A DNA stretch of 64,000 nucleotides. Origin: Alphaproteobacteria bacterium. GTDB lineage: Bacteria > Pseudomonadota > Alphaproteobacteria > UBA828. The notes below the pieces were generated by a model. That model was not told the DNA's origin. It did no database searches and saw nothing but the letters and a program-made list of their open reading frames with translations. Every line of letters starts with the position of its first letter. The stretch's first letter is position 1. The stretch lies in contig CBDCQT010000013.1 of NCBI GenBank assembly GCA_965220745.1, forward strand, positions 672,001 to 736,000, given 5' to 3'. Below are positions 21,389-62,500 of this stretch, piece by piece. The position numbers and the translations under genes are program-made.

Positions 21389-23610
21389 CCGGCGTCGGCG
21401 GGGACACCGGCCGCGGGCTCCGGGTCGCCGCCCGGAGCTTCCGCACATGGCTCAGTCTCGGCATGAAGGTCGCAATGGTCGTGATCGCCGCGGGTCTGGG
21501 CGCCGCAATCCACGAAACCTACGAGAAGACCGCCGAGTACGACCGCTACATCGTGGGTGTCCAGGTCATGTCCGAGATCATGCTCGCCCTGCAGTTCGAT
21601 CCGGACAGGGACAGGACGGTCCTTCGTCCGGACGATACGGAGTATGTCGGCAGCCTGGAAGAGATCGCCACGTTCGAGCCCTACCTCCGCCAGCGTGCCC
21701 GAATGGTGGACCGGGCCGTCGACGCTGCAATTCTCGGCGGCGGTATCGGCGCGGGCCTGGCCGTCGCCGCCCTCTTCGGGCTGCACCTCTTGGGGCGAAG
21801 GCTGGGGCGGGGCCGGCGCCTGCGCGGCGGAGAGCTGGTCAGCCGGAGAAAGCTCGCCTGGCGCACCCTGCCGTGGTGGCGGCGCCTGCCGCTGCCTGGC
21901 CGAGGCCCCGAAGCCTGGCCCTACACTATCGCCCGCATCCCCTGGCCGAAGGGAGCCGAGACCCGGCACACGATCGTCTCGGGAACCACCGGATCGGGCA
22001 AGACCGTGCTCATCGCGGACCTCGTGGAGCAGATCCGGAAGAGGGGAGAACGCTGCATCGTCTACGACAAGATGGGCTCCTATACCGAGACCTTCTTCGA
22101 CGAGCACCGGGACGTTCTCCTCAATCCCCTCGACAGGCGGGCACCCCGCTGGTCCCCCTTCCTCGAGGCCCGCACGGCGCGGGATTTCGACACCATGGCG
22201 GCGGCGCTGATCCCCCGACAGAAGGACGCCGCCGATCCCTTCTGGATCACCGCAGCCCGCCAGCTCTTCTCCCACGGCGCCGCCGTCCTCTGGCAAAGGG
22301 GGGAGACGCGTAACCGGGTGCTGGTGGATCACTTGCTCAAGACCGAGCTCAGCGCGCTCGCCGAGGCCATGGAGGGCACGGTGGCGCAGTCCATCGTCGA
22401 TCCCGCCAACCCGAAGACCGCGCTCTCGGTGCGCGCCATGCTCACCGCCAACATCGGCGCCATGGACCTGCTCCCCGACGAGGGCGATCCCTTCTCCATC
22501 CGCGAGTGGATCGAGCAGGACAGCGGAGGCTTCCTGTTCCTCACCTCGAGGGGCGATCAGCACGCGAGCCTGCGGGGCCTGATCTCGACCTGGCTGGAGA
22601 TTGCCGTCAACGCGCTGCTCTCCCTGCCGCGCAAGGACGCGCAAGGCAACGTCCCGGCACGCCGCACCTGGGTGATCCTGGACGAACTTCCCACCCTGCA
22701 TCAGCTTCCCTCCCTTCGTCCCGGCCTCGCGGAGAGCCGCCAGTTCGGGGGGTGCTTCGTCCTGGGGGTCCAGGTGTTCTCTGCGTTGCGCGACCTCTAC
22801 GGCCGCGACGGGGCAGAGACGATCTCGGGCCTCTGCGGCACGCGCGTGGTCCTGGCGGCGCCGGACAAGGACACCTCGGAGTGGTCTGCCGAGAGCCTGG
22901 GCCGTGTGGAGGTCGAGGCTCTCTCCGAGAGCGTGAGCTACGGGACAGGGGGACGCCCTGGTGCCCCGCACGGCGGCGTGTCCCTGAGCACGCGGCGCGA
23001 CCTGCGCCCGCTGGTGCTGCCGTCGGAGGTGTCGCGGCTGGAGAACCTCTCCGGCTATCTCAAGTTCCCCGGTGCCTGGCCGGTCGCACGGATCGGGCTC
23101 GACTACAGGAAGCGAACCGAAGTGGCCAAGCGCTTCGTGCCGAAGGCGGAGCACGGTGGAAGCAGGCGCTGCAGCACGAAGGAGGAGACGGCCGTCCAGG
23201 GCGCTGCCCCCGTGGCCGATGGCGTAACCGGCAGCGACGCCTATCCTGACCCGAAAGCGCGGCAAACCGACCCAACGTCGACGGTGGAGCGAGCGGTTCC
23301 GGCAACCGCTGCACCGGCCGGCCGGGGAGTCGAGAGGGACGCGTCCGAGGCGGAGATGGCTGTCGGCACCGCCGAAACCATATTCGGTGAGCCGGAGACG
23401 CAGGACGAGGCCGACATCCTGGAGCCGGAGGAATGGGTGCGTGGCGGCGAGGTCCCCGGCGACGCCGGCATCGATGCGCCGAACGAGTCCTGCTGGCGGT
23501 CCGAAGTACTGGCTGCCTCGGCGGGCGCGCGGGACGATCGAGGGGAATCGTCAGGCCAGAAGCGAGGCGAGGGCGAGGCGGACGACGCGAGCGGCCGGTG
23601 GCGGCTGTGA
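21385..23610 (+). CDS. traD: Type IV coupling protein, TraD/TrwB family
   Basis: Two TM helices, LRGGEL, Walker A GTTGSGKT, IVYDKMG, LNPLDRRAPRW, DPFW..AAR, LDELPTL, ESRQFGGCFVLG. Confidence 0.9.
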   Translation: MTGVGGDTGRGLRVAARSFRTWLSLGMKVAMVVIAAGLGAAIHETYEKTAEYDRYIVGVQVMSEIMLALQFDPDRDRTVLRPDDTEYVGSLEEIATFEPYLRQRARMVDRAVDAAILGGGIGAGLAVAALFGLHLLGRRLGRGRRLRGGELVSRRKLAWRTLPWWRRLPLPGRGPEAWPYTIARIPWPKGAETRHTIVSGTTGSGKTVLIADLVEQIRKRGERCIVYDKMGSYTETFFDEHRDVLLNPLDRRAPRWSPFLEARTARDFDTMAAALIPRQKDAADPFWITAARQLFSHGAAVLWQRGETRNRVLVDHLLKTELSALAEAMEGTVAQSIVDPANPKTALSVRAMLTANIGAMDLLPDEGDPFSIREWIEQDSGGFLFLTSRGDQHASLRGLISTWLEIAVNALLSLPRKDAQGNVPARRTWVILDELPTLHQLPSLRPGLAESRQFGGCFVLGVQVFSALRDLYGRDGAETISGLCGTRVVLAAPDKDTSEWSAESLGRVEVEALSESVSYGTGGRPGAPHGGVSLSTRRDLRPLVLPSEVSRLENLSGYLKFPGAWPVARIGLDYRKRTEVAKRFVPKAEHGGSRRCSTKEETAVQGAAPVADGVTGSDAYPDPKARQTDPTSTVERAVPATAAPAGRGVERDASEAEMAVGTAETIFGEPETQDEADILEPEEWVRGGEVPGDAGIDAPNESCWRSEVLAASAGARDDRGESSGQKRGEGEADDASGRWRL

Positions 23611-23712
23611 GAATGATGCGTTCCCCTCGGCCCTTCCGCAGCATGGGCACGTCGGGCGCCGGGTCGACCGGTCGGATTGCCGAAGCGGTGAGCAGCGGGT
23701 GAAACGGGTCCG

Positions 23713-26700
23713 ATGGTCGTCTCGATCGGAGCCATCGCCTCCGCCGCGCAGGGCGTGTCGTATTTCGAGCGGGACGGATACTACACGAAGGGGGATCCCC
23801 AACACCTGAATGCAAGCGCCTGGGTCGGCAAAGGCGCGGATGCGCTCGGGCTACGGGGTCCCGTCGAGCCCGATGTATTCCGGGAGATTCTGGAGGGTAT
23901 CGTGCCTGACGGCTCGGGGCGCCGCCTGGGGCGCCCCGAAAAGGACGGCACCGTCACGCATCGCCCCGGCAGGGACCTCACGTTCTCGGCGCCCAAATCC
24001 GTGTCTCTGGCCGCATTGCTCGGCGGTGATGCGAAGGTCGCAGCGGCCCACGATGCCGCGGTGAGGCGCACGCTCGCCTGGCTGGAGGCGACGACGATCC
24101 AGACCCGCATGAGAGATCCGGAGACCGGAATTCTGGTGCGCGCCGGCGGCCAGAAGATGGTGGCCGCCACCTTTCGTCACGAAGTCTCGCGCAACCTCGA
24201 CCCCCAGCTCCATACCCATGCGGTGATCGCAAACATGGTGCAGGGCGAGGACGGGGGAACACCCCGGTCCGGGGGAACGCCCCGGTCCGGCAAGTGGCGC
24301 ACCATGGCCAATGAACCCCTCTACAGGCGCCAGAAGCCGATCGGCATGGTCTACAGGAACGAGCTCGCGCGGGAGCTGCGGGCGCTCGGCTACGAAGTCG
24401 AGAAGACCCACGCCGACGGGCGTTTCGAGATCGCGGGCGTATCGCGGACCGTCGTCGAGGCCTTTTCTTCCCGCCGCGCGGAGATCGAAGCGGCGATGGC
24501 GGCGCGCGGCCTGGGCGATCCGGGCAGCAATCCGCACCTCGCCGAGCGCGCGGCCCTGATGACGCGCGCCCACAAGCGCGACGTGGACAGGGAGGCGCTT
24601 CAACGGAGCTGGCGCGAGCAAGCGGCGTCGCTGGGCTTCTCGGCAGAGGAGGCGATCAAGGCAGCCCGCAGGCAGCGCTCGATGAGCCCCGACGGCTCGG
24701 GACAGGGGGTTGAGGCGCCCCGCGAGCGGAACGCCGCCGGCAAAGAAGGCGCGACCCCGGGTGCGGCACGCGATGCCGGGCTGGCATCCGAGGCGGTGGC
24801 GTGGGCGACGGAGCACCTCTCCGAGCGCGAGGCAGTGTTCGCTCGCTCCGACCTGCTCGCCGCCGCGCTCGCCTGGAAACCGGGCGCCGTCCCCGTCGAG
24901 GCCGCTGGAACGGCTATCGAAGCGGCGCTCCAGGAGGGCCGGCTGCACGCCGCGCCGGGTTACCGGGGAGCTTCCCTCTCTCCGGGAGACGAGGGCCTGA
25001 CCACGGACATCGCGCTCGCCGACGAGCGCGAGACGATCGGCCTCATGCGCAGCGGCCAGGACAGGGGACGGGTGCTGATGCGCCGGCGAAAGGTACGCCA
25101 GCACCTGCACAAGGGACCGCTCACCGGCGGCCAGAGGCAGGCGGTAACCGCGATTCTCTCATCCAGGGATCGGGTCGTGGGCGTGCAGGGCTTCGCCGGC
25201 ACCGGCAAGACGGCCATGCTGAACCGGGCACGCGCGCTCGCGGAGAAGAGCGGATACCGCATGGTCGGGCTCGCACCCTCCGCCTCTGCCGTGCAGACGC
25301 TCGCGGCCGAGTCCGGCATACAGAGCGAGACCCTGCAGGGCTTCCTCGCGCGCAACGCAGGCGTCGCCGAGGGCAGGCTTGCCCGCAAGGCGGCCCGCAA
25401 GATGCGCGAGGACTTCGCGAAGACCGTTCTGGTGGTGGATGAGGGCTCGCTCGCCTCCACCGTCCAGGCCCGCGACCTGCTCAGGATCGCAGACGCCCTG
25501 CACATTCCCAGGGTCGTGCTGGTTGGCGACGAGAAGCAGCTCGACGCCGTCGACGCCGGCAAGCCCTTCGCCCAGTTGCAGCAGGCAGGCATGCAGACGG
25601 CGGTCATGGACCAGATATTGCGCCAGAGGGAGCCTGCGCTGAAGGAGGCGGTCGAGGCCAGTCTCGCAGGCGACGTCCGCACGGCGTTCGAAAAGCTCGG
25701 ATCCAATGTGGCGCAGGTGAAGGCCGACAACATTGCGGGCGCCGTCGCCGCGCGCTGGCTGAGGCTGTCATCGGAGGAACGTGAAAACACCGGCGTGATG
25801 GCGCCGAGCCACGAGCTCCGCGGCGCCATCAACGGCCACATCCGGGAGCGCCTCGCGAGAGAGGGCGCGATCCACGGCCCCACCTTCCACGGCGAGCAGC
25901 TGGTCTCCCGCGGCTACACGCGGGCGGAGAAGGCGCTCGCCGTCAACTATGCGCCCGGCGACGTGGTGACCTTCCACCGCGCCTACAAGCGAATGGGAAT
26001 CGGCAAGGGCGACGAGCGCCGGGTGGTCGAGGTGGACCGTCGCAGCCGCACGGTGGTGTTGGCGGACGCGAGCGGCGGCACCATCGCCTGGAAGCCCGGC
26101 ATGATCGCGGGTCGTCATGGCGGCAGCGAGGTCTACCGTGCGGAGCCCATTGAGCTGCGCGCGGGCGACCGTATGCGCTGGACCCGCAATGACAAGGGCC
26201 TCGGGCTGGTGAACGGCCGCACTGCCGAAGTGGTCTCGGTGAGCGCCGACCGCGTCTCCTTGCTGCTGGAGGACGGGCGGACGCTCGCGCTCGACAAGGA
26301 TGCCCCGCAGCTGCGCCATCTCGACCACGCCTGGGCTTCGACCGTGCACGCGTTCCAGGGACGCACGGTCGACAGGGTGATTGCCGCGATGGAGGCCAAC
26401 CACCCGCACCTGACGACGCAGAAGAGCTTCTATGTCGAGATCAGCCGGGCGCGCGACCAGGCCGAACTCGTGACGGACGACGTGGTGCGGCTACGGGAGC
26501 GGCTCGAGGCCACGACAGGCGAACGGATCGCTGCGCTGGAAGCGGTTACGCCGAAGAATCGGGACGCAACGGCGAAGGCAGCCGAGGCGACCGGCGAATT
26601 GCCGGCACACACGATGCCCGCGCGCTCGGACGCGGGCGTCAGGCCGCAGGCGGATCGAGGCGCGCCGTTGGACAAACAGACCGAACCGGGTGGCAGGGAA

Positions 26701-26778
26701 CATACTGAAGGCAAACCCGGGCCGAGCGAGCCTGCCCCTCGAAAGCGGATCGAGCTGGAACTGGAGTTGGAACTGTAG
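23713..26778 (+). CDS. MOBF relaxase-helicase (TrwC/TraI-like)
   Basis: SYFERDGYY tyrosines, DLTFSAPKSVS, HEVSRNLDPQLHTH, helicase GFAGTGKT, DEGS, GDEKQL, TVHAFQGRT, FYVEISRAR. Confidence 0.95.
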   Translation: MVVSIGAIASAAQGVSYFERDGYYTKGDPQHLNASAWVGKGADALGLRGPVEPDVFREILEGIVPDGSGRRLGRPEKDGTVTHRPGRDLTFSAPKSVSLAALLGGDAKVAAAHDAAVRRTLAWLEATTIQTRMRDPETGILVRAGGQKMVAATFRHEVSRNLDPQLHTHAVIANMVQGEDGGTPRSGGTPRSGKWRTMANEPLYRRQKPIGMVYRNELARELRALGYEVEKTHADGRFEIAGVSRTVVEAFSSRRAEIEAAMAARGLGDPGSNPHLAERAALMTRAHKRDVDREALQRSWREQAASLGFSAEEAIKAARRQRSMSPDGSGQGVEAPRERNAAGKEGATPGAARDAGLASEAVAWATEHLSEREAVFARSDLLAAALAWKPGAVPVEAAGTAIEAALQEGRLHAAPGYRGASLSPGDEGLTTDIALADERETIGLMRSGQDRGRVLMRRRKVRQHLHKGPLTGGQRQAVTAILSSRDRVVGVQGFAGTGKTAMLNRARALAEKSGYRMVGLAPSASAVQTLAAESGIQSETLQGFLARNAGVAEGRLARKAARKMREDFAKTVLVVDEGSLASTVQARDLLRIADALHIPRVVLVGDEKQLDAVDAGKPFAQLQQAGMQTAVMDQILRQREPALKEAVEASLAGDVRTAFEKLGSNVAQVKADNIAGAVAARWLRLSSEERENTGVMAPSHELRGAINGHIRERLAREGAIHGPTFHGEQLVSRGYTRAEKALAVNYAPGDVVTFHRAYKRMGIGKGDERRVVEVDRRSRTVVLADASGGTIAWKPGMIAGRHGGSEVYRAEPIELRAGDRMRWTRNDKGLGLVNGRTAEVVSVSADRVSLLLEDGRTLALDKDAPQLRHLDHAWASTVHAFQGRTVDRVIAAMEANHPHLTTQKSFYVEISRARDQAELVTDDVVRLRERLEATTGERIAALEAVTPKNRDATAKAAEATGELPAHTMPARSDAGVRPQADRGAPLDKQTEPGGREHTEGKPGPSEPAPRKRIELELELEL
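24253..24288 (+). repeat. 18-bp family A, 2 units in the relaxase DGKWR loop
   Basis: gggggaacaccccggtcc-gggggaacgccccggtcc; removing 36 bp restores DGKWRT. Confidence 0.9.
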
Positions 26779-26784
26779 TCCAAT

Positions 26785-26913
26785 TGCCGCGCTCGCCGGA
26801 ACCGCGCCGAGATAGTGGTGCGCCTGCATCAGGTTGCGGAAGCGGGCCTCGTCCGCCGCCACCACGATGTCAACCGCTACCTCCGAAAGAACCGCCACCG
26901 CCTTCCCGTCCAC
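26785..26913 (-). pseudogene. Fragment of a DUF4338-like IS-associated protein
   Basis: EARFRNLMQAHHYLG motif, truncated against the relaxase stop. Confidence 0.5.
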
Positions 26914-27059
26914 ACGGCTGCCTCACGGCACCTAAAGCGGAACGTGGCGGGGAAGTTCAGAATCACCGTCAACTCGTTGTCAGACGGCACCAATGCTCAA
27001 GGAACGTATCCGCCCTCGCCGGATACCCTGGAGCATGTGGTTCCGGGTCGCTTATCTGG

Positions 27060-27390
27060 TCCCCTGTCAGACAAGGGCATGTCTGCGGTGCAGTTTCAGT
27101 GGCAGCTTGGACTGACGCGGTACGAGACTGCGTTCGGCATTCTGCTCAGCTCCACGCTGGTATGGTGCGGCCCGGCCGCAGGTCGGGGCCGGATCGTGCC
27201 TGGAGACGGAGAGTATGCGGAGGTCGACGAGTCTTATGTTGGAGGCCGGACCCGTGGTGAAGGCCGAGGCGTTCACCACAAGACGCCGGTGGCCGCTGCC
27301 GTCGAAGCCCGCTACAGGAATCCCGACACCGCGCGGGACAGGCGGACGGGTGGCCGCTACGCCGAGCGCGTACGGCTGGCCGTCGAACTC
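27060..27390 (+). mobile_element. IS1595-family transposase remnant
   Basis: KGMSAVQFQWQLGLTRYETAF and AEVDESYVGG...KTPVAAAVE; later DDE residues absent. Confidence 0.7.
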
Positions 27391-27551
27391 ACGGTCGTCC
27401 CTCGTTCCGAACGTCAAGAGCGACACCAAGTGCACGCGCCCAGGGCGCCGCAACCCAATTCGAGCGCCTTGTTTCGAGCTCGCGGGCGGATGGGAACCCG
27501 TCCGGCGCGCAGCTTTCCGTTGGCAGCAGCGCGTGGCGGCGCCCGGTACGA

Positions 27552-28160
27552 TCACGGATGCGGCGGCTCAGCCTGGGCAAGAGCCTCCGCCGCCCAGCCA
27601 GGAACGATCCCGGCGATCCACCAGGCTCCGTCCTTCAGGATCGCAACTTCGCGGTGCGGCCGATCGGGATCGGTGTTGTCGTAGAGCAGGACGTCGTGCG
27701 CGCGCGCAATCGCCGCCGGGAGATTGGCGTGTGAGCGCGCAAACCGCCGCCGCACATCCGCTTCCGGAACATCGTGACCGCCGAGCGCGACCCGGTTGCG
27801 GATGCGATCGAGCGCCTGGTCCGGCGAGGCGACGGACAGGAAGTGAAGGACGATCCGGTAGCCATCACGCCGCGCGGCCTCCATGTGGTGAAGAATGCCG
27901 GAACCGGCAAGCGTCGTCTCCACCAGGTGCGTCCTCCCGGCGGCAAGCGCAGCCTGCCGCCGGCGCAGCGCCTCGCGCGCTGCCTGTCCGGTGGAGCCGG
28001 CGGTCATGCTGCGCGCGATCGCATCGGGGTCGATGATGTCAACGTCGCCGAACCAGGTCGTCCGCGTCAGACTGGACTTGCCACACCCGTTCGGACCGGA
28101 AACAACGATGAGAGTCGGCAAGGCCGCTGCCGGGTCAGGCGGACTTCTGCCCGGGCGCAC
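27552..28160 (-). CDS. Zeta-toxin-like / AAA P-loop ATPase
   Basis: VSGPNGCGKSSL, IDPDAIA, ETTLAG, RIRNRVALGGHDVPE..RRRFARS, LYDN. Confidence 0.85.
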   Translation of the reverse strand: MRPGRSPPDPAAALPTLIVVSGPNGCGKSSLTRTTWFGDVDIIDPDAIARSMTAGSTGQAAREALRRRQAALAAGRTHLVETTLAGSGILHHMEAARRDGYRIVLHFLSVASPDQALDRIRNRVALGGHDVPEADVRRRFARSHANLPAAIARAHDVLLYDNTDPDRPHREVAILKDGAWWIAGIVPGWAAEALAQAEPPHP

Positions 28161-28338
28161 TGAGCACCCGGTCCCCCTCCCTGGTCCGTGCGATATAGGC
28201 GCCGTCCGAACGGACGCCGTAGAGGGTACCGCCAGCCTCGACCTGGGCTGCCAAGTCTGCCCTGATCTGGTCGCGCCAGTCTTTCGGGCGACCCGGTATG
28301 TCGGGCGGCGGCGCGGGTGTATGCCTGTGCTCTCTCAT
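28135..28338 (-). CDS. Small protein, putative antitoxin partner of the zeta-like ATPase
   Basis: 67 aa ORF overlapping the ATPase start. Confidence 0.5.
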   Translation of the reverse strand: MREHRHTPAPPPDIPGRPKDWRDQIRADLAAQVEAGGTLYGVRSDGAYIARTREGDRVLSAPGQKSA

Positions 28339-28698
28339 GCCGCCGACCCTACATTCGACGGTCGCGGCCTTCAACCCGATACAGATCGATACTGCGCGGG
28401 AACAGGCGGCGGCCCGAACGCCCCAAACATGTGCCGACGGCGTCACGCCGCTGCGGGATCGTCCGTCGACCTTCCCGCGAGTTTGACTTGCCCCCACACT
28501 CCGGCGGGAAGGGAGAGTCACGATGTGTCCGTCGCCAGGGCATCACTTTCGTTCGTGATCGACGCGGCGGCTGCGATGATGGGGCTGAGGCGACCCGGCT
28601 CAACGTGTCCAGGTTGAGCGCCTATGCTGCGAGGTGCTGCGAGGAAGCGCATTCCTGCGGGATCGGCGATACGCGGAAACCGGAAAGCGTCCCTCGCT

Positions 28699-29076
28699 TC
28701 AGTCGCTGGCGAGGAGATCCGACTGGGAGAGTCTGGCGTCCCGATGCGTCCTGTCGATCTCTTCGTGGCGTCCCTCGCGGACCAGTTCCTCGCGCTTCAG
28801 CGCCGCGACAAAGTACACGCCGCGATAAGTGCTCTCGATCAGTCTCACCAGTCCACGCGGCAGCGTGCCCTCGACGGAGCCGGCATCGCCGATGGCTGCC
28901 GCCAGGGCGGCATTGCGAACGAACTCGCCGGGTGAATCGTCACGTGTGGACGCCGCCACTTCCACCGCTTTCCACTCCGACTTGGAGAATCTGATGCTAT
29001 GGTTTGTTCGAGTGTCGACGCATTGTCTGTTCGCAAAGCCGTTCGTTCCTTTTGATATGGGCTTGTTCGATGTCAT
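28699..29076 (-). CDS. RHH-like (MobC/TrwA-type) relaxosome accessory protein
   Basis: HSIRFSKSEWKAVEVAA..SPGEFVRNAA strand-helix-helix pattern; adjacent to oriT. Confidence 0.6.
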   Translation of the reverse strand: MTSNKPISKGTNGFANRQCVDTRTNHSIRFSKSEWKAVEVAASTRDDSPGEFVRNAALAAAIGDAGSVEGTLPRGLVRLIESTYRGVYFVAALKREELVREGRHEEIDRTHRDARLSQSDLLASD

Positions 29077-29159
29077 TGTTGCATCCTTCGTGTTTGAGAC
29101 TGGAACGTTCGGCGCTCAAGCCGCCGAACAACTTCTTCGATCGTACAGTTACGAGACGG

Positions 29160-29412
29160 GGTATAGCAGCCGTAGTGCGGCCGCACTACGGGGTTTCGGT
29201 AGCGCAAAACCTACGCGTTGCGATGCAACGCGCTTCTAGAGAAAGCATTGTTTACAAACATACTTTGATCGCACTGCGCTGCAACGCGCTCGCTCCAACG
29301 GCAATTTTGCAGGTTTAATCATGCTCCTGCCAACTTCTGCGCACGATTGCAGCAGGAATTCGGGGAAATAGCATCTTTGCACCCGCGGTGCGTGGGGTGT
29401 GAGAACAGAAGC
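29160..29412 (+). other. oriT of element 1; predicted nic between 29400 and 29401
   Basis: GCACC-CGC-GGTGCGTGGGGTGT^GAGAACAGAAGC matches the F nic core TGCGTGGGGTGT^G, preceded by an R388-like hairpin. Also palindrome cgtagtgcggccgcactacg and direct repeat tgcaacgcgct (29224, 29280); lower GC. Confidence 0.8.
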
Positions 29413-29869
29413 GGCTCCGCCGTAGAGCCGCGACTATGGGGGGCAGTAGAAAGGAGTCAGGGCCCAGCCTCAAGAGCGGGGCAAGGGGGACGATCCGCGG
29501 CAGTTGGCCGGGCGATTGCGCTGGGAACGCAACGGCGTGCTGCACGACCGCATTGGGCAGTGACTGGGGCACGCGATCATGGTCCGCACGATTGACGGAT
29601 CACCATCGTCATCGCCGGTGTCGGGCGTGGTGGCGCCGGGCCGTTCAGGCCCGGCGCCACCAATGTCCGGAGAGCGTCCGGCGACGGCGCGCGAGCGCCG
29701 AGCCAGACGCGACGGGCCGCGGATGGCGGGCCGCGGAACGGATCGCTTGCCGGGAGCGCGGCGGCGGCGCGTAGCGCCGCGACGCGCGACGCGGGGGCAC
29801 GGCGAAAAAGAGAGAGCCGATCCGCGCCGAGGCACGGACCGGCTCCTGGGGGGAGGAGGAAGCGCCGCT

Positions 29870-30790
29870 TCAGGCAGCGACGCTCATGACCGGGATGCCG
29901 AGCTGGCGGGCCTTGTCGACCAGGTTCCCGGTGATGCCTGAGCCGGGGAACGCGATCACGCCCTTCGGCAGCAGGTTCAGCAGCTCGTCGTTCCTGCGGA
30001 AGGGGGCAGCGTTGCCGTGCGTCTTCCAGTCCGGGCGGCACACGACCTGGTCGACGCCGCGCGCGTCCGCCCAGCTCGCCGCGATCTTCTCGACGCCGGG
30101 GCCGCCACCGTGCAACAGCACCATGTCGCCGTACTTCGCGCGCGTGGAGTCGAGCGTGGTCCAGATGGCGTCGGCATCGCTGACGGTCTTGCCGCCGGTG
30201 ATGGCGACGAGGGTGCCGTCGGGCAGGTGCGCACTCGTCTCGCGGTCCTGCCGTGCGCGGCGGAAGTCGCGGGCGTCGATGGCGGCTGAGGTGAGGGTTC
30301 CGGTCTGCGAGGTGTGCGATCCGTGACGCGGACGCCAGACGTCGCCGGTCTCGACACGGTAGGCGTCGGCAGCGAGGTCGCGGAGCTTCTCGAACGCGTC
30401 GCGCCTGTCGCCGAGGTTCTGTGCGCGGTCGGTCAGAGTCTGCAGCTCCCATGCCTTCACCTCGGTGCCGTCCTGCGCGCGCTCGAGGTCGCGCATCTCG
30501 GGCGCGATGCGGTCGACGGCACGGTCGAGACGGGTGACCTGGGAGTGCAGCATGTTGACGAAGCCCCACATCAGGGGCTCGCGCTCGTCGGCCATCTGGG
30601 TGCCGTCGACGGTGACTCCGTCCACCATGACGCGGATGGCCTCGGACAGCGCGTCGATGGCGTCGTCCTCGTCCCAGACCTCGCGGCTGTCGAGCTCACC
30701 GCGCTCAGGGCTGGCGCCGTAGAGCGCGATGCTGTCGCAGACGGCTGCAGTGGCGGAAGCGGATGCGGTAGCGCTGGTGGTGTCGATCAT
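29870..30790 (-). CDS. DUF2493 / YspA-SLOG domain protein
   Basis: VAITGG, LLHGGGPGVEKIAASWA, AAPFRRNDELL, VIAFPGSGITGNLVDKA; N-terminal helical domain. Confidence 0.85.
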   Translation of the reverse strand: MIDTTSATASASATAAVCDSIALYGASPERGELDSREVWDEDDAIDALSEAIRVMVDGVTVDGTQMADEREPLMWGFVNMLHSQVTRLDRAVDRIAPEMRDLERAQDGTEVKAWELQTLTDRAQNLGDRRDAFEKLRDLAADAYRVETGDVWRPRHGSHTSQTGTLTSAAIDARDFRRARQDRETSAHLPDGTLVAITGGKTVSDADAIWTTLDSTRAKYGDMVLLHGGGPGVEKIAASWADARGVDQVVCRPDWKTHGNAAPFRRNDELLNLLPKGVIAFPGSGITGNLVDKARQLGIPVMSVAA

Positions 30791-30924
30791 GACGATCTCC
30801 TTCGGTTCGTCCTCCGAGGCGGTATGCCCCGTCGTGACGTCCTTTTCGGGTCACGCGCGCGCAGCGGAAGCACCTGGCCCTGGAAGCTCTTGGGCGGGAG
30901 TCGGTGCGGAAGGTCGCCGATTTC

Positions 30925-31262: not shown

Positions 31263-31501
31263 AGACGATTGGACGAAACGACGGGAAGAGCCTTTGTTGG
31301 AAGCTCCTCCATCTTTGTCTTTGGCAAGCGGAGCGCGCAGCGAGCGTTCGCGAGCGGAGGCGAGAGGGATACCCGCCCGAAGGGACGAGACCGCGCAGCG
31401 GGCTCGGCAGGGTAGCCCGGCCGCGAAGCGGCTCGCCCGAAGTGCTCCTTGAAGGCCGCAGGACAATCCACGAGGGCATGGCATGGTCGAGGGGCCAGTC
31501 A

Positions 31502-31798: not shown

Positions 31799-32830
31799 TC
31801 ACGCCAGCTCCTGCTGCCCTCTCACTCCCGCGAAGCGGAAGAGGGGCGCGAGGCGCGCGCGCAGAGCGGCGGAGCCGAGCGCGAGCAGGTCGTCGTTGAA
31901 GTCCGCACCCTCGGGAACGAGGACATGGACGGGCACGCCGGCCCGCGCACAGCGGCGGGCGAGGCGTTCGGCCGCCCACTCGCCTTCCGGGTCGTTGTCG
32001 CGGGCAATAACGAGCCGGGCTGTGCCGGCAGGAGGCGCGAACGCGCCGAGGCTGCCGGCGGACAGCGCGGCGGCGGCGACGGTGTCCGGCATCGCGGTGA
32101 CCAGCGACAGCACGGTCTCGATGCCCTCGCCGACCAGCAGCGTGCCGGCCGCCGGGTTGCCGAAGCGCACGGCGAGGCCGTGGACACGGCCGAGCGCCTT
32201 GCGCGGCCGCGCCACGGGCGCTTTGGCCGGGCGCACCGGATCGAGCCAGGTGCGGTGGACGCCGGTAATGGAGCGGTGACCGGGGTGTTCCCCCGGAACA
32301 GGGTGTTCCCCTGCGTCGCCGGTGACGGCGGCGACCAGCGCCGGCAGGCGGCGTATGCCGCCGCCGTCGCGGTAGAAGAGCGAGGGGTGGAAGCGGAGCG
32401 CGGGGAAGCGGCAGCGGTGGATGTGCCGGGCGCGGAGATAGGCCTCGGCATGGGTGCCGTCGATGGCGCGGCAGCGCTGCCACAGGCGGCGCGCCGCTTC
32501 CGTGCGGTCGTATGAGTCGGGGCCGCCGGCGACGGCCGCGGGCGGCAGCGCGAGGAAGGCGCGCGCCTCGGTGAGGGCGGCGCGGAGCGAGCCCGCGCCG
32601 GAGGCGATGCGGATGAGATCGAGCAGGTCGCCGTGCTCGCCGGTGGCCGCATCCGTCCACTTGCCGGGGACGCCGGGCGGCGAGAGGCGGACGAAGAGCG
32701 AGCGCCCGCGGGCGCCGCGAATGTCGCCGGCGGTCCAGTAGCGGCCGTGCTTGCGGCCGTGGGGAAGGTAGCGGCGGCAGACCTCCTCCGCGCGCGCGCC
32801 GAGGGCGGCGGCGACGGCGGTGGCGTTCAT
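31799..32830 (-). CDS. Toprim-domain primase-like protein
   Basis: YLPHGRKHGRYW, GKWTDAATGEHGDLLD, AEAYLRAR, VGEGIETVLS, IARDND, DFNDDL. Confidence 0.85.
   Translation of the reverse strand: MNATAVAAALGARAEEVCRRYLPHGRKHGRYWTAGDIRGARGRSLFVRLSPPGVPGKWTDAATGEHGDLLDLIRIASGAGSLRAALTEARAFLALPPAAVAGGPDSYDRTEAARRLWQRCRAIDGTHAEAYLRARHIHRCRFPALRFHPSLFYRDGGGIRRLPALVAAVTGDAGEHPVPGEHPGHRSITGVHRTWLDPVRPAKAPVARPRKALGRVHGLAVRFGNPAAGTLLVGEGIETVLSLVTAMPDTVAAAALSAGSLGAFAPPAGTARLVIARDNDPEGEWAAERLARRCARAGVPVHVLVPEGADFNDDLLALGSAALRARLAPLFRFAGVRGQQELA
32276..32311 (-). repeat. 18-bp family A, 2 units inside toprim 1
   Basis: gtgaccggggtgttcccc-cggaacagggtgttcccc; absent from toprim 2. Confidence 0.9.
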
Positions 32831-33520: not shown

Positions 33521-33820
33521 TTAGAAGGGGATACCGGAGCCGTCGTCCGTGTCGGACGGGGCGGCATCGGCGGTGGCCGTCGCCTCACCGTTGGCGGGCG
33601 GGGCGCCGTTGCCGTTGGTGCCGGCAGGCTTGTCCAGGAACTGGACGCGCCCGCCGGGGACCAGCAGGATCTCGGTGGAGAAGCGGTCCGAGTCCTCGCC
33701 GTCCTTGCGCCAGTTGCGGGTCTGGAGCTTGCCCGAGACGTAGACCAGGCGGCCCTTCTTCGCGTGCTTCTCGAGCATGTCGATCAGCCCGTCCTGGAAG
33801 GTGACGCAGCGGTGCCTTTC
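33521..33820 (-). pseudogene. ssb: 5'-truncated ssb
   Basis: HRCVTFQDGLIDMLEKHAKKGRLVYVSGK...DDGSGIPF is nearly identical to the 3' part of ssb 42168-42617; similarity stops at the TEWHR position. Confidence 0.85.
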
Positions 33821-34043
33821 AGTAAGCAGAGGATTCTGCACAGGACACACGCACGCGGAGATACGATCAGGTACGATGAATTGGATGAAAACCGCAGAGT
33901 TCTGCCACTTTTCCGCCATAATGCCGTATCGCACTCCCGACAGGAGCACGCTCCGCTACGCGTCCATTCGACATCAGTCGCTTGCAAGGTGCTTACTGAG
34001 CGCCTACCATGCCCGACCGTCGAAAACTCGCTACACCCGACCC

Positions 34044-35225
34044 ATGCCCAGACGCGCCGAACGCAAACTCTCCAAGCGCACCATCGACGCCCTCGCCGTT
34101 GACGAGCGCGACGCCGTCTTCTGGGACCGCGACCTGCCCGGCTTCGGGGTCAGGGTCTATCCCTCCGGCCGCAAGGTCTACCTCGTGCAGACCAGGGGAC
34201 CGAAAGGCTCGAAGCGGGCAACGCTCGGCCGCCACGGAGACCTCACCCCGGACCAGGCTCGCAAGAAGGCTGCGGACGCCATCGACCGCATCAAGCGCGG
34301 CGAGGACCCGCTCCCGGCTGAGCCCAAGCCCGAGCCCACCGTGGCCGACCTGGCCGCGCACTACATGCGCGCCCATGTTGAGGTGAACTGCCAGCCGGCG
34401 ACCGTGAAGGACTACCGGCGCACCCTCGATCTGCACATCCTGCCCGCGCTCGGGGAGATGGCGCTCGCCTCGGTTGAGCGCAAGCATGCCGCCGACCTCC
34501 ACTACCGGCTTCGCGAGACGCCCACACGAGCGAACGCGGCGCTGAAGATCCTGTCCCACATGTTCGCCCTGGCTCCGGGCTGGGGCTTCGAGACGGGCGG
34601 CAGGAACCCCTGCCGCTTCGTGCGCGGCTATCGGGAGCGCAAGCGCGAGCGCTTCCTGACGCGCGACGAGTACCGCCGGCTGGGCGACGTCCTGGACGAG
34701 GCGGAGAAGGGCCGGATGTCGGTGTACACGGTGACCGCGATCCGCGTGCTGATGCTGACCGGGTGCCGGCGCAACGAGGTCCTTGAGCTGACGTGGGACG
34801 ACGTGGACCGGACCACGGGGGAGCTGCGGATTCGTCACGCCAAGACCGGCCCGCGCCGGGTGCCGCTGACGCCGCTCGTGGCGGAGATCCTTGACGCGCT
34901 CCCCCGCGTGGAGGGCAAGCCCTGGGTGTTTCCGGGCCGGGGCGCCGACGGCCGCCTGGTCAACATCAACGCGCCGTGGCAGGCCCTGTGCGCGCGCGCC
35001 GGGCTCAAGGACGTGCGCATCCATGACCTGCGTCATTCGTACGCCTCGCGCGCGCTGGCGCTGGGCGAGAGCCTGACCACCATCGGCGGTCTGCTCGGTC
35101 ACACGAAGGTGCGGACCACCGCGCGCTATGCGCACCTTGCGCGCGACACGGAGATCGCGGCTTCGGCGAAGATCGGGGCCAGCATCGGCGCCCATGTCCT
35201 GCAGGACGGGACCGAGCCTGCCTGA
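34044..35225 (+). CDS. Tyrosine integrase with N-terminal arm-binding domain
   Basis: FWDRDLPGFGVRVYPSGRK; TGCR, KTG, HDLRH, LLGH, TARYAH. Confidence 0.95.
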   Translation: MPRRAERKLSKRTIDALAVDERDAVFWDRDLPGFGVRVYPSGRKVYLVQTRGPKGSKRATLGRHGDLTPDQARKKAADAIDRIKRGEDPLPAEPKPEPTVADLAAHYMRAHVEVNCQPATVKDYRRTLDLHILPALGEMALASVERKHAADLHYRLRETPTRANAALKILSHMFALAPGWGFETGGRNPCRFVRGYRERKRERFLTRDEYRRLGDVLDEAEKGRMSVYTVTAIRVLMLTGCRRNEVLELTWDDVDRTTGELRIRHAKTGPRRVPLTPLVAEILDALPRVEGKPWVFPGRGADGRLVNINAPWQALCARAGLKDVRIHDLRHSYASRALALGESLTTIGGLLGHTKVRTTARYAHLARDTEIAASAKIGASIGAHVLQDGTEPA

Positions 35226-35252
35226 CGCGGCGTTCGGGGAAGAGGTGCAGCG

Positions 35253-36494: not shown

Positions 36495-36508
36495 GCCCGG
36501 CTGACCCG

Positions 36509-42902: not shown

Positions 42903-43883
42903 ATGAACGCGGCCGCCGTCGCCGCAGCGCTTGCCGAGCGCGCCGAGGAGGTCTGCCGCCGATACCTGCCCTACGGACGCCGCCGGGGCCGGTACTGGGT
43001 CGCGGGCGACCTCGACGGCGGGCGCGGGCGATCCCTCTTCGTCCGCCTCGCGCCTCCGGGCGTGCCGGGGAAATTCACCGATGCGGCCACGGCCGAGCAT
43101 GGCGATCTTCTCGACATCGTCCGCCACCGCATCAACGCGCCGACGCTTCGCGCGGCGCTCGACGAAGCGCGCGCCTTCCTCGCCCGGCCGGCCGTGCCGG
43201 CCCAGGGCGCGGGCGACGCCTACGACGCCACCGAGGCGGCACGCCGCCTCTGGCGCCGCTGCCGCGCCATCGACGGCACCCATGCAGAAGCCTACCTTCA
43301 CGCTAGGGGGCTCGCGCGCTGCCGCTTCCCCGCCCTGCGCTATCACCCTGCGTTGCTCTACAGGGGTGTCGGTGGCGTGCGCCGCCTGCCGGCCCTGGTC
43401 GCCGCCGTCACCGGCTCCGATGAAGCCGTCTGCGGCGTGCTGCGAACGTGGTTGCACCCGACCGAGCCCGCCAAGGCGAATGTGAGTCGCCCGCGCAAGG
43501 CGCTGGGCCGCGTACACGGCCATGCCGTGCGCTTCGGCCGCCCCGCCGACGGAGCTTCGCTCCTCGTCGGCGAGGGCATCGAGACGGTGCTCTCCCTGGT
43601 GACCGCCTCGCCCGAGATCACCGCCGCCGCAGCGCTGTCCGCCGGCAGCCTCGGCGCCTTCGCGCCGCCTGCCGGCACAGCCCGCCTCGTCATCGCCAGG
43701 GACAACGACGAAGAAGGCGAGCGCGCGGCTCTCCGCCTCGCCCGGCGCTGCGCGCGGGCGGGCGTCGCCGCCACCGTCATCGTGCCTCGCGGCACCGACT
43801 TCAACGAGGATTTGCTCACCTTCGGTCCCGCCGCGCTCGCCGCCTGGACGGCGGCCGCGCTCGCAGACCGGGAGCCCGGGTGA
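42903..43883 (+). CDS. Toprim-domain primase-like protein (paralogue 2)
   Basis: Same motifs as 31799-32830. Confidence 0.85.
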   Translation: MNAAAVAAALAERAEEVCRRYLPYGRRRGRYWVAGDLDGGRGRSLFVRLAPPGVPGKFTDAATAEHGDLLDIVRHRINAPTLRAALDEARAFLARPAVPAQGAGDAYDATEAARRLWRRCRAIDGTHAEAYLHARGLARCRFPALRYHPALLYRGVGGVRRLPALVAAVTGSDEAVCGVLRTWLHPTEPAKANVSRPRKALGRVHGHAVRFGRPADGASLLVGEGIETVLSLVTASPEITAAAALSAGSLGAFAPPAGTARLVIARDNDEEGERAALRLARRCARAGVAATVIVPRGTDFNEDLLTFGPAALAAWTAAALADREPG

Positions 43884-54215: not shown

Positions 54216-54292
54216 ATGGTCCGCTGGTGAGGGCCTGACAACGAATTCCAGCCGGGCGCAAGGGGCGCCCGCGGGAGAAGAGGAGAAACGCC

Positions 54293-55366: not shown

Positions 55367-55401
55367 TCGCACTCGCGGACCAGGAGGCGCTCTCGGCACG
55401 G

Positions 55402-58924: not shown

Positions 58925-58959
58925 CGAGTGGGATCATTTGCCCGTAGCCAGACGAGGGG

Positions 58960-59260
58960 CGTGCGCACTGCACGACAGAGCGGCAAGTGATGCGAAAGCG
59001 TGCGGCCAAGGATCGACGGCGCAGGGAACACGTAGGCGCTCTCCGAGCGTGGCTGCCTCCCGAGAATGGCGCGTGCTGGCGCATTGAGAATGACCCGCCT
59101 CGGTCCGGACTTGGCGTCGACGAGACTGAGCGTGTCGCTGCCCACATCCTGCCAGCACAGGGCTACGGATTCGGTCTTCCGGTAGCCGGTCAGCAACAGA
59201 AGGAGGATGAAATCTGCCTGCCGCGCGCGACGGTCGCGCGTCATCGTGGTGATCCAGCAT
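58960..59260 (-). pseudogene. Tyrosine integrase remnant (middle of catalytic domain)
   Basis: QADFILLLLLTGYRKTE..LCWQDV...DAKSGPRRVILN..YVFP. Confidence 0.75.
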
Positions 59261-59550
59261 CCCATGGAGTCGACACACCTCCTCGCGCGAAAGTAAGCGG
59301 GTGAGCGTGGCACCGGGTGGACGTGGGGACCTGACCGCGCTGCCGCCCCCCCTGCCGTGCCTCCGCCCCGCGACCGGCGATAGCCGGCGCCGGCCGACGC
59401 TGTCGATCCTCCCGCAGCCCGCGGGTCGGAGAGGTTCACCAAGACCCTCTTGGCCCGCACGACGACGATTCGGGCGAGGATGGTCGGAGGCGGCAGCGAA
59501 AGAAGCGGGGCATCCGGTGCTACCGAAGCACGAGCGCGGCCAGACTTCCT

Positions 59551-62500
59551 CTACAGTTCCAGCTCGAGCTCGTACTCGTAGGTCTTCTCGCGCTTCGGCC
59601 GCGCAGGCGGAGCAGGCCGTCGATCGGCCGGGGCGGGGTCGCCGACATCGGCGCGCTCCAACGGCGCAGGTGCCGGCGCACCGCGTTCACGGTCCCGCTG
59701 CGGCACAGACTTGGGCTCTACCGGCTGGCGCGCCGCATCGTCCCTGGCCTTGCCGTCCCTCGCCGGACTGTCCGCCGGCGACGGCGCGATGGCTTCGAGG
59801 GCGGCGATGCGTTCTCCCGTCGCCGCCTCCAGGCGCTCGCGCAGTGCGCGGCGGTCGTCGGTCACCAGCTCGGCATGAAGGCGGGCACGGCTGATCTCCA
59901 CGTAGAAGGTTTTTTGGGTGGTCAGATGGGCGTGCTCCGCTTCCATCGCCGCGATCACCCGGTCCACGGTGCGGCCCTGGAACGCGTGCACCGTCGCTGC
60001 CCAGGCCCGGTCGATATGGCGCAGCTGGGGATCGTCCCGGCGCAGCGTCAGAGCCCGGCCGTCCTCCAGCCGGAACGAGACGGCTCTCTCGCCGACCGCC
60101 GACACCTCCGCCGTGCCGCTGTTCACCAGCCCGTGCCTCCTGTCGTTGCGGGTCCAGCACACCCGGTCGCCGCGGCGAAGCTCCATGGCATCCACGGCGT
60201 AGACCTCCACCCCGCCGCGCCGCGCCGCCAGCCTGGCGGGTTCCCAGGCGACGGTAGCGCCATGCTTGCCTTGCAGCGTCACCACGCCTGCGGCGCGGTC
60301 GACAGCTGCGACGCTGATCTCGTCGCCCTTGTCGACCCCGAGACGCTTGTAGCGGCGGTGGAAGGCCACGACATCGCCCGGGACATAGTTCGCGGCAAGC
60401 GACTTCTCGGCATTGGTATAGCCGCGCGAGACGAGCCTCTCGCCATCGATCGCAGGCCCATCGATGACGCCGTCGCGGACCAGGCGCTCGCGGACGATGG
60501 TGTTGGTCTTCTCTCTCAGCGCGTGGCTGGGGGCCATCAGCCCCGTGACCTCCCGCTCTCCGGGCGAGAGCGCAAGCCAGCGCGCGGCGGCAGCGCCCGC
60601 AAGATTGTCCGCCTTCACCTCCGCGACGTTGTCGCCGAGTTTTCGGAAGGCCCGGTGAATGTCGCCGGCGAGGCTGGCCTCGACGGCCTCCTTCAGCGCC
60701 GGCTCGCGCTGGCGCACGATCTCATCCATCACCGCGCACGTCATGCCTGCGGTCTGCAGCTGCGCGAAGGGCTTGCCGGCGTCGACGGCATCGAGCTGCT
60801 TCTCGTCACCCACCAGGATCACACGGGGGATGCGGAGCGTGTCGGCGATCCTGAGAAGGTCGCGGGTCTGCGCGGTGGAGGCGAGGGAGCCCTCGTCCAC
60901 CACCAGCACGGTCTTGCGGAACCGTGCCTTCATGGCCCGCTCGCCCCTGCGGGAGAGCCGATCCTCGGCAACGCCCGCGTTGCGGGCGAGGAAGCCCTGC
61001 AGGGTCTCGCTGGCAATGCCGGCCTCCGCATCGAGAGTGCGCGCCGCAGAGGCCGACGGCGCCAGGCCCCTGACCTCGAAGCCGCGCTTCTCCAGCAGAG
61101 CCCGCGCCCTGTTCAGCATGGTGGTCTTGCCGGTGCCGGCATAGCCCTGCACGCCCACGACGCGATCGTTGTGGGACAGGATCACCTTCACCGCCTCCTT
61201 CTGCCCGGTCGTAAGGGGGCCGTTGCGGAGCGCCTTGTCGACGGCGCGCCCGCGCATGGGAGCAGCACCCCGCCCCTGTCCGCGTTCCATCAGCGCTATG
61301 GTCTCGCGTTCGTCGGCGACAGTCCTGTCGGTGGTGAGCGAATCCCCCGGCACGGGGTAGTCCGCAGCCAGCAGGGTGCCGGCCTTCTCCAGCCGCGTGA
61401 CGGCGGCCTCAGCCTCGCCGATGCTCACCTTGCCGGGATTCCAGGCGAGAGTCGAGGTGAGGAGATCGGTTCGCGAGAATACCGCCTCTCTCTCGGAGAG
61501 GTGCGCCACGGCCCAGGCGGCCGCCCGGTCCACTTCCGCCGTCGTACCAGGCTCCGCCTCCCGGTGCTGGCCTGCACGGGCGAGGGGTCGGTCTCCGTAG
61601 GCCGCCTGCCGGTGCCGGGCCTCGTTCACGAACTCACTTGCGTCGAAGCCCAGTTCCGAGGCCTGCCTCTGCCAGCTCTCGCGCAGGGCGTCCCTGTCCA
61701 CCTCGCGCTTGTGGGCGCGGGTCATGAGCGCCGCGCGCGCCGCCAGATGGGGGTTGCTTCCGGGATCGCCCTGGCTGCGAGCGTCCATCGCCGCCTCGAT
61801 CTCGGCGCGCCTGGTGGAAAAGGCCTCGACGATGGACCGCGATACGGGGGACCGCCCTGGTGCACCCGCGATCTCGAACCGCCCGTCCGCGTGGGTCTTC
61901 TCGATGCCGTAGCCGAGCTCCTCCAGGCCTCTCGCCAGCTCGGCGCGGTAGAGCGCGCCGATCAGCATCTTGGACGCATAGAGCTTCTCGTTGGCCATGG
62001 TGCGCCACTTCGCGGAACGGGGCGTTTCCCCGGACCGGGGCGTTCCCCCGTCCTGACCCTGCACCATGTTGGCGATCACCGCGTGCGTGTGGAGCTGTGG
62101 GTCGAGGTTGCGCGAGACCTCGTGGCGGAAGGTGGCGATCACCGCCTTCTGGTCTCCGGTGCGCACCATGCGGCCGCTGTCTGCATCCATCGTCCTGGTC
62201 TCGACCGCGTTCTTCTCGATCCAGGCAAGTGTCCTGCGCACGGCGGCGTCATGGGCAGCGACGATGCGTTCGTCGCCGCCGATCAGGGCCGCGATGGATA
62301 CGGACTTGGGCGCGGAGAAGGTGACGTCGCGGCCGGGGCGGTGGTCGATCGTACCGTCCCCCAGCCTGCGGCCGAGCCGGCGGCCCGAGCCGTCGGGGAC
62401 TTCGCCCGCGAGGATGTCGCTGAAGACGTCCGGATCGACCGGCCCGGAGAGCCCCAGAGCGTCCGCGCCCCTGCCCGCCCAGGCGCTGGCCTCCCGGTGG

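Follow-up and report, generated by a model that had tools for sequence, protein, structure and literature searches.

Palindromic repeats, small insertion sequences and tandem coding repeats have each been described in forms that can be set beside the 18-bp repeat unit reported here, which occurs in an integrative conjugative element of a sponge-associated alphaproteobacterium. The unit was studied in a 64,000-bp stretch of that genome (the window; G000:C13:672001-736000, approximately 70% G+C). The Rickettsia palindromic elements (RPE), said to have been described by Ogata and colleagues in 2000, reportedly measure some 100-150 bp, are dispersed over the chromosome and do not form tandem arrays. 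Like RPEs, the unit is a short, palindromic, apparently selfish repeat that stands in frame within conserved genes, adds an extra peptide at tolerated positions, has insert-free homologues and is capable of forming a hairpin. Unlike RPEs, it is only 18 bp long, is arrayed, is confined to one conjugative-element lineage and follows a 5'-AC rule, and so departs from RPEs in length and dispersal. Elements of the IS200/IS605 group insert 3' of a short specific target, without target duplication, in a hairpin-dependent manner and with strand-asymmetric ends; they are several hundred bp long or more, carry two subterminal hairpins and encode TnpA. The unit also inserts 3' of a short target without duplicating it; in its case, however, the whole mobile piece is 18 bp with a single hairpin, and there is no TnpA (PF01797). 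The unit does not fit the definition of a miniature inverted-repeat transposable element, with its terminal inverted repeats and target-site duplication, as clean insertions show no consistent duplication.

Three further systems invite comparison. REPs are palindromic, G+C-rich, multicopy repeats of 20-40 bp, thought to be moved as single-stranded hairpins by an HUH (Y1) enzyme, the RAYT; they are extragenic and carry GTAG or CGTC tags (PMC3733652). On that description the unit resembles REPs in being palindromic, G+C-rich and multicopy, and differs in that it is intragenic (in TraD, relaxase, toprim and transfer genes) and that its genome lacks PF01797. TrwC is a MOBF relaxase with two catalytic tyrosines that cuts and joins single strands at a 17-bp core (14+3 around nic), tolerates looser acceptor sites and integrates whole transferred molecules (PMC3264647). 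The elements under study encode TrwC-family relaxases, and the unit, at 18 bp, is close to the size of that 17-bp core; in contrast to the integration so described, the pieces would be of 18 nt rather than whole molecules, and recognition of the unit by a relaxase is only hypothetical. PARCELs are patchily distributed, mobile-element-associated tandem coding repeats with dyad symmetry, made of 25-residue (75-bp) domains that build whole open reading frames (ORFs) of unknown function (PMC2996958). The unit shares the tandem coding arrangement, the dyad symmetry, the link to mobile elements and the patchy distribution, whereas its insertions are of 18 bp and lie in conserved enzymes. In-frame variable-number tandem repeats (VNTRs), too, change by whole, frame-preserving units between close relatives; unlike VNTRs, which arise at their own locus, a single unit family is shared here by over 40 loci and also appears singly at previously unoccupied sites. 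Full-text literature searches turned up neither an 18-bp unit interspersed in frame within genes nor comparable repeats in conjugative elements. The unit is best seen as kin to known selfish palindromic repeats tolerated in coding sequence, from which it stands apart by being so small, by forming arrays, by following an AC rule and by being restricted to a single lineage of elements.

Paralogue differences and the 18-bp unit

Two integrative conjugative elements overlap the window: element 1 lies mostly within it, element 2 in part. The first-pass annotation had proposed that paralogous genes of the two elements differ by exact 18- or 36-bp insertions of a common unit, and all five of its comparisons proved real, the differences being of exactly those lengths and lying at, or a few bases from, the positions it gave (Table 1). 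These differences are probably best explained as copies of a very small interspersed DNA repeat that was inserted and subsequently arrayed. The unit is G+C-rich and quasi-palindromic, approximately AGGGGAACGCCCYGGTNC on what is here called the unit strand, with no stop codon in any of the six frames and with the dyads GGGG-N4-CCCC and CCCYGG-T-CCRGGG. A tandem-repeat search found many 18-bp arrays of this one unit in the window, in both orientations.

The coupling protein TraD1 of element 1 differs from TraD2 of element 2 by a unit read as GGRPGA at site B, preceded by GGGAC and empty in 20 of the 23 TraD homologues, and by a degenerate unit read as AQGNVP at site A, empty in 19 of the 23. The homologue L016 has a pristine unit at site A where the window copy is degenerate, and L026 alone has a unit at a third TraD site. 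The relaxase of element 2 (Rel2) has 18 bases more than that of element 1 (Rel1) at a site designated FEIAG/V, the slash marking the insertion point (APGRSP), while both relaxases carry 36 bp, or two units read as 12 residues (GGTPRS twice), between D and GKWR, here the DG/KWR site. In protein-guided alignments, 658 of 1002 residues are identical between Rel1 and Rel2 and 357 of 463 between TraD1 and TraD2, and within the conserved domains the gaps are exclusively the exact six-residue ones, APGRSP, AQGNVP and GGRPGA. Toprim 1 has two extra units (GEHPVPGEHPGH, at approximately 32276-32312) that are absent from all four other paralogues of the genome, including toprim 2, so that the site is filled in one of five. 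Four of the five differences are clear unit copies. The fifth, six extra residues in Rel1 at approximately 24958-24978, is exactly six residues long and present only in L009 and L010 among 29 rows, but its DNA is weakly unit-like (its alignment to the unit scores 12.5, where random sequence reaches 11.5 at the 95th percentile and 16 at the 99th), and the pairwise aligner splits it 5+1. The boundaries of the inserts coincide with unit boundaries in one constant phase. Comparison with outgroups, which the first-pass annotation had named as the means of telling insertion from deletion, showed that outgroups lack the extra residues, and the differences are therefore insertions, not deletions.

The peptide encoded by the unit varies with its frame. 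At securely framed sites all three sense phases (0, 1 and 2) and two antisense phases (1 and 2) are used, hence at least five of the six frames, the assignment being based on G+C content at third codon positions (GC3), which is noisy at gene boundaries, and limited to rows with GC3 of at least 0.82 and second-position G+C (GC2) of at most 0.60. The sense-phase peptide types are GEHPGP, GGTPRS and QGNALV, and the antisense types APGRSP and DRGVPL. Assignment by the longest stop-free frame was dropped, as it gives wrong strands in high-G+C DNA. In the 13 relaxases with a filled DG/KWR site, codon pairs for the same residue differ in 0.17 and 0.14 of cases within the two units, in comparison with 0.29 in 60 flanking codons and 0.42 for flanking G, T, P, R and S codons; synonymous positions within units thus vary two to three times less than flanking codons. 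This pattern suggests that the units are younger than their flanks, homogenised, or constrained as DNA. Because at least five of six frames are read and synonymous variation is two to three times lower, the unit is a DNA element rather than a protein motif.

Each 18-bp unit holds a single short hairpin. Predicted folds of two arrays scored z -2.8 and -3.0 relative to shuffled sequence, and a two-unit array z -0.5. Positions 12 and 18 of the unit (Y12/R18) showed no covariation in 170 distinct units, and for that reason a conserved structure under hairpin selection is not claimed. An Rfam scan of the window gave no family at the gathering score.

Insertion into new sites and the AC target

At seven sites a clean 18- or 36-bp unit stands opposite empty sites in four to six homologous elements (e.g., 14467-14484), and every clearly resolved insertion has the same phase. 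Single units in this position lie in a non-unit context, so their sequence came from another copy; a preformed unit has been copied from an existing copy into a new site. This bears out the earlier proposal that local slippage is not the origin of the single copies. The further proposal that the unit was supplied in trans holds as regards a non-local origin and is too broad otherwise: units are restricted to a single lineage of elements, and they were probably donated by the very element that received them rather than by a diffusible, genome-wide supply. Likewise, the insert at FEIAG/V of Rel2 is single, as had been claimed, but it does not lack a neighbouring copy, since two inverted units lie approximately 150 bp away at the DG/KWR site.

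Insertion is of exactly 18 bp in constant phase, usually immediately 3' of AC and less often of GC, and without target duplication. Among 73 distinct contexts, the two bases preceding the first unit on the unit strand read AC 47 times and GC 15 times. As homologous sites in related elements are non-independent, contexts were clustered into independent sites, a rough remedy, and AC then precedes the unit in 27 and GC in 10 of 45 sites, against an AC background of 4.5% (P about 3e-25, and still about 1e-22 after multiplication by 288). There is no preference in the 3' flank. The AC is already present in empty alleles and hence belongs to the target. No consistent target duplication was seen at clean insertions, a flank duplication being possible in two of nine inspected sites. 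Folded as a single strand, the 14467 unit is predicted to pair its GT (unit positions 15-16) with the AC beside it, so that the GGGG/CCCC stem reaches across the left junction.

A second family of 18-bp units (CACCCCTKCGGGTGGNNN) is also hairpin-forming. Its units stand in frame, singly or in arrays, and each of the seven homologous elements compared (see below) has 4-15 copies. By manual count, 54 of 59 matches are followed by CAC, and one extra copy, at 5991, is present in a metagenome contig. When re-phased, this family shows the same 'after AC' pattern, suggestive of one process serving two sequences.

Phylogeny of the relaxase sites

The polarity of the relaxase inserts was set with six paralogues from the same genome, 32 sequences from the genus and 62 loci from metagenome-assembled genomes (MAGs) of other organisms, and in all of these sets the contiguous motif is ancestral. 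The DG/KWR site is filled, with one or two copies, in 13 of the 32 genus relaxases and empty in 18, the remaining row having an unrelated local duplication; in other organisms, 58 loci could be read and 2 of them are filled. The FEIAG/V site is filled in 4 of the 32 (1, 1, 2 and 3 copies) and empty in 28; of the 56 loci readable there in other organisms, 2 are filled and 54 empty. Copy number thus ranges over 0, 1 and 2 at DG/KWR and 0, 1, 2 and 3 at FEIAG/V. The DG/KWR loop also bears small insertions unrelated to the unit: L025 has a locally duplicated GKWD, and L058 is longer by four residues. Both support the view of this loop as insertion-tolerant.

The first-pass annotation had taken the 36-bp DG/KWR insert shared by both relaxases as a sign of insertion before the two elements diverged, a claim that the tree does not support. 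Presence and absence at DG/KWR need at least nine changes among the 32 relaxases, on a tree of the relaxase domain with insert columns excluded (a quick search over 291 columns in a recombining gene family); FEIAG/V needs two changes for presence and four for copy number. Rel1 falls in one clade and Rel2 in another, and both have nearer relatives with an empty DG/KWR site. Given these changes and these empty relatives, the shared 36 bp are poor evidence for insertion before divergence, and DG/KWR is better explained by repeated gain at a permissive AC site, by precise loss or by the exchange of short patches.

Exchange of patches raises the alternative that there has been little or no repeated de novo insertion, and that a few old inserts spread among paralogues by gene conversion or recombination, with slippage altering their copy number. 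This alternative draws on the homoplasy at DG/KWR, on the up to 18 matches to the relaxase that single genomes hold, and on elements otherwise poor in units that carry them in the relaxase at the same two sites. In addition, 12-15 mismatches clustered densely and immediately downstream of the FEIAG site separate L003 from its near-identical relatives L004 and L022, which shows that patch exchange occurs. The sister pairs tell otherwise at DG/KWR. Four of them differ cleanly (L012/L014, L011/L013, L021/L036 and L022/L004), and sliding mismatch counts found no excess in their flanks (1-5 mismatches per 20 codons in the window of the count that holds the site), a test that short conversion tracts could escape; L004 and L022 differ cleanly at both relaxase sites within near-identical flanks. 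Spread by conversion fails, moreover, on the 41-45 distinct sites in unrelated genes and on the single units opposite four to six empty homologues, and as a general account it is considered unlikely.

Copy number across seven elements

Seven homologous elements were compared, namely the one in the window, one each from G037, G025 and G035, and three from G034. Each holds 19-44 units at 9-19 sites, and projection by flanks gave 41 unit sites across the seven, of which 35 vary. Of 363 non-zero pairwise length differences in an approximate length matrix, 184 are multiples of 18 and 325 are multiples of 3. The C-terminal tail of the DotD-like protein, for example, is encoded by 126, 72, 72, 18, 18, 0 and 0 bp of array. 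Contigs of another sponge metagenome differ from the window by the loss of 18 nt at 13422 and the gain of 18 nt at 16801; this comparison used contigs of relatives (four runs) rather than reads, and is informative only for the parts that they cover. In the copy in G027, the array at 18210 contains a 21-bp variant unit (18 + 3), which is still in frame (G027:C72).

Distribution

Within the 4.8-Mb genome, arrays of the unit are found only at C13:665522-696290 and at 734013, among 118 rows of period 18. A position weight matrix (PWM), built from the arrays by coordinates, gave 53 matches of at least 16 bits in the genome compared with one on the reversed sequence, more than expected by chance. 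At a threshold of 14 bits, 49 of 96 matches lie within 80 kb (C13:660-740 kb), approximately 45 of them on element 1; element 2 has four PWM matches and the relaxase on contig C3 has one. Units are nearly absent from the host chromosome and from co-resident paralogous elements.

A dimer of the unit was found in 16 of 44 genomes of the family, all belonging to the genus of the window (reversed control 0), and in none of 400 other genomes of the class (308 genera). The eight genus genomes with 13-34 dimer matches are exactly the eight that have a homologue of at least 87% identity to the transfer protein encoded at 18054-20333, and the other 13 genus genomes have 0-6 dimer matches and homologues of at most 73% identity or none. 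The unit lives in one lineage of type-IVB (Dot/Icm- or IncI-like) integrative conjugative elements in one genus, a genus of sponge-associated Alphaproteobacteria. Most sequencing runs that hold the region are labelled as sponge metagenomes, and a collection of plasmids gave no near DNA match, with all protein matches below 60% identity and no close outgroup.

The relaxase family is more widespread. Its relatives come from MAGs titled as sponge-derived bins from several phyla: the loci L039-L100 encode relaxase domains 60-70% identical to that of Rel1, in MAGs labelled as Alphaproteobacteria, Gammaproteobacteria, Acidobacteria/Bryobacterales, Binatia, Thermodesulfobacteriota and others, many of them sponge-derived bins. 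This suggests that one relaxase family circulates across phyla in the sponge habitat. G034, G035, G040 and G041 each have 11-18 matches to the family, and the genome of the window has four close matches and several distant ones.

These distributions bear on a further explanation of the paralogue differences, that each gene underwent independent local slippage and that the resemblance of the inserts reflects G+C-rich composition or selection for Gly/Pro linkers. In-frame periods of 12, 15, 18 and 21 are indeed common genome-wide, and the inserts lie in loops, linkers and termini. However, slippage of this kind does not lead one to expect the same 18-mer at more than 40 loci (53 strong matches against one in the control) and none in 400 other genomes of the class, nor its reading in five of six frames as different peptides, single copies without a local template, and synonymous sites more conserved than the flanks. 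Independent slippage is accordingly very improbable.

A possible mechanism

Insertion of preformed units would be followed by filtering, such that the survivors are insertions in permissive places, that is, loops, linkers and protein termini; this is suggested by the alignment of the DG/KWR insert of Rel1 to a gap in TrwC (1OMH) and by the many arrays that abut gene ends. A resident unit may then grow or shrink by whole units through slippage or unequal exchange, giving arrays of 1-9 copies. The catalyst of insertion would be a structure-specific enzyme acting on single-stranded DNA of the element, which is favoured because the donors are always units and the targets always lie in element DNA. 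It might be an HUH-type nuclease-transferase such as the element's own TrwC-family relaxase. Given that relaxases of the TrwC family act on a 17-bp core, where they cut and join single strands, and are less exacting about their targets (PMC3264647), the resident relaxase is the simplest candidate, though its identification as the catalyst is tentative and on balance doubtful.

Several observations weigh against insertion by such a route. No catalyst was identified, and no Y1/RAYT transposase (PF01797) was found in the genome of the window, which is 99.96% complete (the control search was positive in 6 of 14 known genomes). Units in the window's element occur in both orientations, at 6 plus and 13 minus sites, which action on the transferred strand alone would not yield. 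The unit-rich G040 carries a relaxase of another clade (L021), and there are genomes rich in relaxases and without units (G041, with 11 matches and 0 dimers). The candidate origin of transfer (oriT) at 29138-29168 is unlike the unit, in a comparison with what we take to be the R388 nic region. Turnover is slow: across 12.3 kb at 95.8% identity, the G027 copy departs from the window at a single array, where it has 21 bp more. The length matrix was projected from BLAST hits, many of the genomes are MAGs or drafts, and array lengths in draft or metagenome assemblies may be misassembled. Finally, the homoplasy at DG/KWR could stem from short-patch gene conversion rather than repeated insertion.

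New insertions might also arise without any enzyme of this type, by template switching during replication, in which a nascent strand whose last bases are AC leaves its template, anneals to the ...GGTAC terminus of a unit in another array of the same element, copies one or more whole units and rejoins the same AC. Exact multiples of 18, a constant phase, and a 5' AC with a free 3' flank are all predicted by such a process and all seen; both orientations are compatible with it, and the folding of arrays, better than that of shuffled sequence, would favour stalling and slippage. It is nevertheless hard to reconcile with the observation that only units are ever donors, although they make up less than 2% of the element, when random microhomology should copy other sequence as well. 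The expected match between the last two bases of the unit and the target is present at 9 of 17 single-unit AC sites and at none of 12 GC sites. Moreover, templated insertion over kilobases on 2 nt of microhomology is not known as an established bacterial process. Template switching is thus regarded as a somewhat improbable source of the inserts.

Returning to the copying of preformed units by a structure-specific enzyme, a more far-reaching version would see the 18-bp unit and the second family as the smallest autonomous-looking mobile DNA, a hairpin 'nano-transposon' that is excised or copied as an 18-nt single strand and pasted 3' of AC by an HUH enzyme. Most simply, the element's own TrwC-family relaxase would act while the element is single-stranded, during conjugative or rolling-circle replication, and the conjugation machinery would thereby support the unit as a parasite, or yield it as a by-product, that rewrites the element's proteins in frame. 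This extension is speculative and unlikely.

Genomic setting

Element 1 extends from approximately 18 kb upstream of the window to about window position 36500. A Pfam scan of its left arm found an integrase, DDE and IS110 transposases, an S24 repressor and pilus genes, and that of its right arm a YspA/SLOG protein, the toprim protein and two integrases, with no obvious extra nuclease in either arm. Its transfer system is of type IVB, with DotD, TraI, TcpQ, DotI/IcmL and DotH/IcmK domains. The tyrosine integrases form a tandem pair at the right end (33777-36494), with a third at the left (L142:1918-3117) that adjoins the DDE and IS110 transposases, and the boundaries of element 1 may be composite. 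Within the window, element 2 comprises toprim 2, Rel2 and TraD2 (Table 1).

Assignment of Rel1 and Rel2 to the MOBF class rests on PF08751 (E 3.4e-83) together with a C-terminal helicase (AAA_30, UvrD_C_2), and the HxH metal motif of Rel1 (HTHAV) is aligned in the match to 1OMH. A longer ORF call for Rel2, to 62745, is probably spurious; its Arg-rich 51-residue extension (62593-62745) lies upstream of the conserved MVASIG start and is probably untranslated. Both relaxases end in the same acidic/leucine tail (...ELELELEL; 26752-26778 and 59551-59580), their C-terminal 60-80 residues being otherwise dissimilar, and this tail could be a secretion or recruitment signal.

An inverted-repeat search of 26700-30000 and 20280-21000 gave only one tentative oriT candidate, at approximately 29138-29168, a 12-mer of which occurs in only one other of the loci compared, the G027 copy. 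The surrounding segment (29040-29460) is non-coding and of lower G+C content, with a small hairpin at 29138-29152 and a perfect 22-bp palindrome at 29170-29191, and a 15-bp perfect inverted repeat lies at 29628-29662. Tandem repeats of 15-bp period are present in transfer genes at 6541-6609 and 7177-7221, and a sponge-metagenome contig has 30 additional bases at 7188.

Table 1. Unit copies, arrays and host genes in the window (positions counted from the first base of the window).
Feature	Position	Strand	Evidence or remark
Unit array in TcpQ-domain protein gene	2999..3088	-	Tandem-repeat search, PWM
Array of about 7 units, C-terminal tail (GDHPGP)n of DotD-like protein	4009..4151	+	Tandem-repeat search
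Array of second unit family	4980..5036	+	Tandem-repeat search
Further positions of second unit family	5268-5285, 5976-5993		
Second array of second unit family	11612..11668	+	Tandem-repeat search; fold z -3.0
Unit array inside 1045-aa ORF	13397..13502	+	Tandem-repeat search, PWM
Clean single unit in 1045-aa ORF ('own 26467')	14467..14484	-	Site empty in 6/6 homologous elements
Unit array, C-terminal end of ORF 16244-16840	16719..16808	-	Tandem-repeat search, PWM
Unit array near N-terminus of ORF 18054-20333	18176..18229	-	Tandem-repeat search, PWM
TraD1, type IV coupling protein of element 1	21385..23610	+	Pfam TrwB_AAD_bind E 9.8e-131
Degenerate unit in TraD1 (AQGNVP), site A	22639..22656	+	Absent from TraD2; filled in 4/23 homologues
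Unit in TraD1 (GGRPGA), site B	22948..22965	+	PWM 14.0 bits; filled in 3/23 homologues
Rel1, MOBF (TrwC-type) relaxase-helicase of element 1	23713..26778	+	Pfam TrwC E 3.4e-83; PDB 1OMH (TrwC) E 1e-52
Two tandem units in Rel1 (GGTPRS x2), D/GKWR	24253..24288	+	PWM 23.3 (24254) and 22.6 (24272) bits
Third 18-bp insertion in Rel1, weakly unit-like	24961..24978	-	Six extra residues, L009 and L010 of 29 rows
Toprim 1 (DUF7146 + Toprim_3)	31799..32830	-	Pfam
Two units in toprim 1 (GEHPVP, GEHPGH)	32276..32312	-	PWM 19.7 (32276) and 21.7 (32294) bits
Toprim 2, site empty	42903..43856	+	Paralogue comparison
Rel2, relaxase of element 2	59551..62592	-	Conserved start at 62589
Single unit in Rel2, antisense to gene (APGRSP)	61846..61863	+	PWM 16.3 bits at 61847
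Two units in Rel2, DG/KWR site	62014..62049	-	PWM 18.6 (62013) and 22.6 (62031) bits
TraD2, sites A and B empty	62591..64000, past the window to about 64588	-	Alignment with TraD1

Implications

If the interpretation preferred here is correct, an 18-base piece of DNA acts as a discrete insertion unit with a phase, an AC target and a host range of one element lineage, at a size well below that of the known bacterial repeats that insert into coding sequence. It would also point to an undescribed cut-and-join or copy activity on single-stranded DNA of the element. For the transfer systems themselves, the unit shows a route by which their proteins gain Gly/Pro-rich loops and tails, and its sites mark out naturally where TrwC-, TraD- and Dot/Icm-type proteins tolerate insertions, besides providing fine-scale markers for tracing element lineages in sponge microbiomes.

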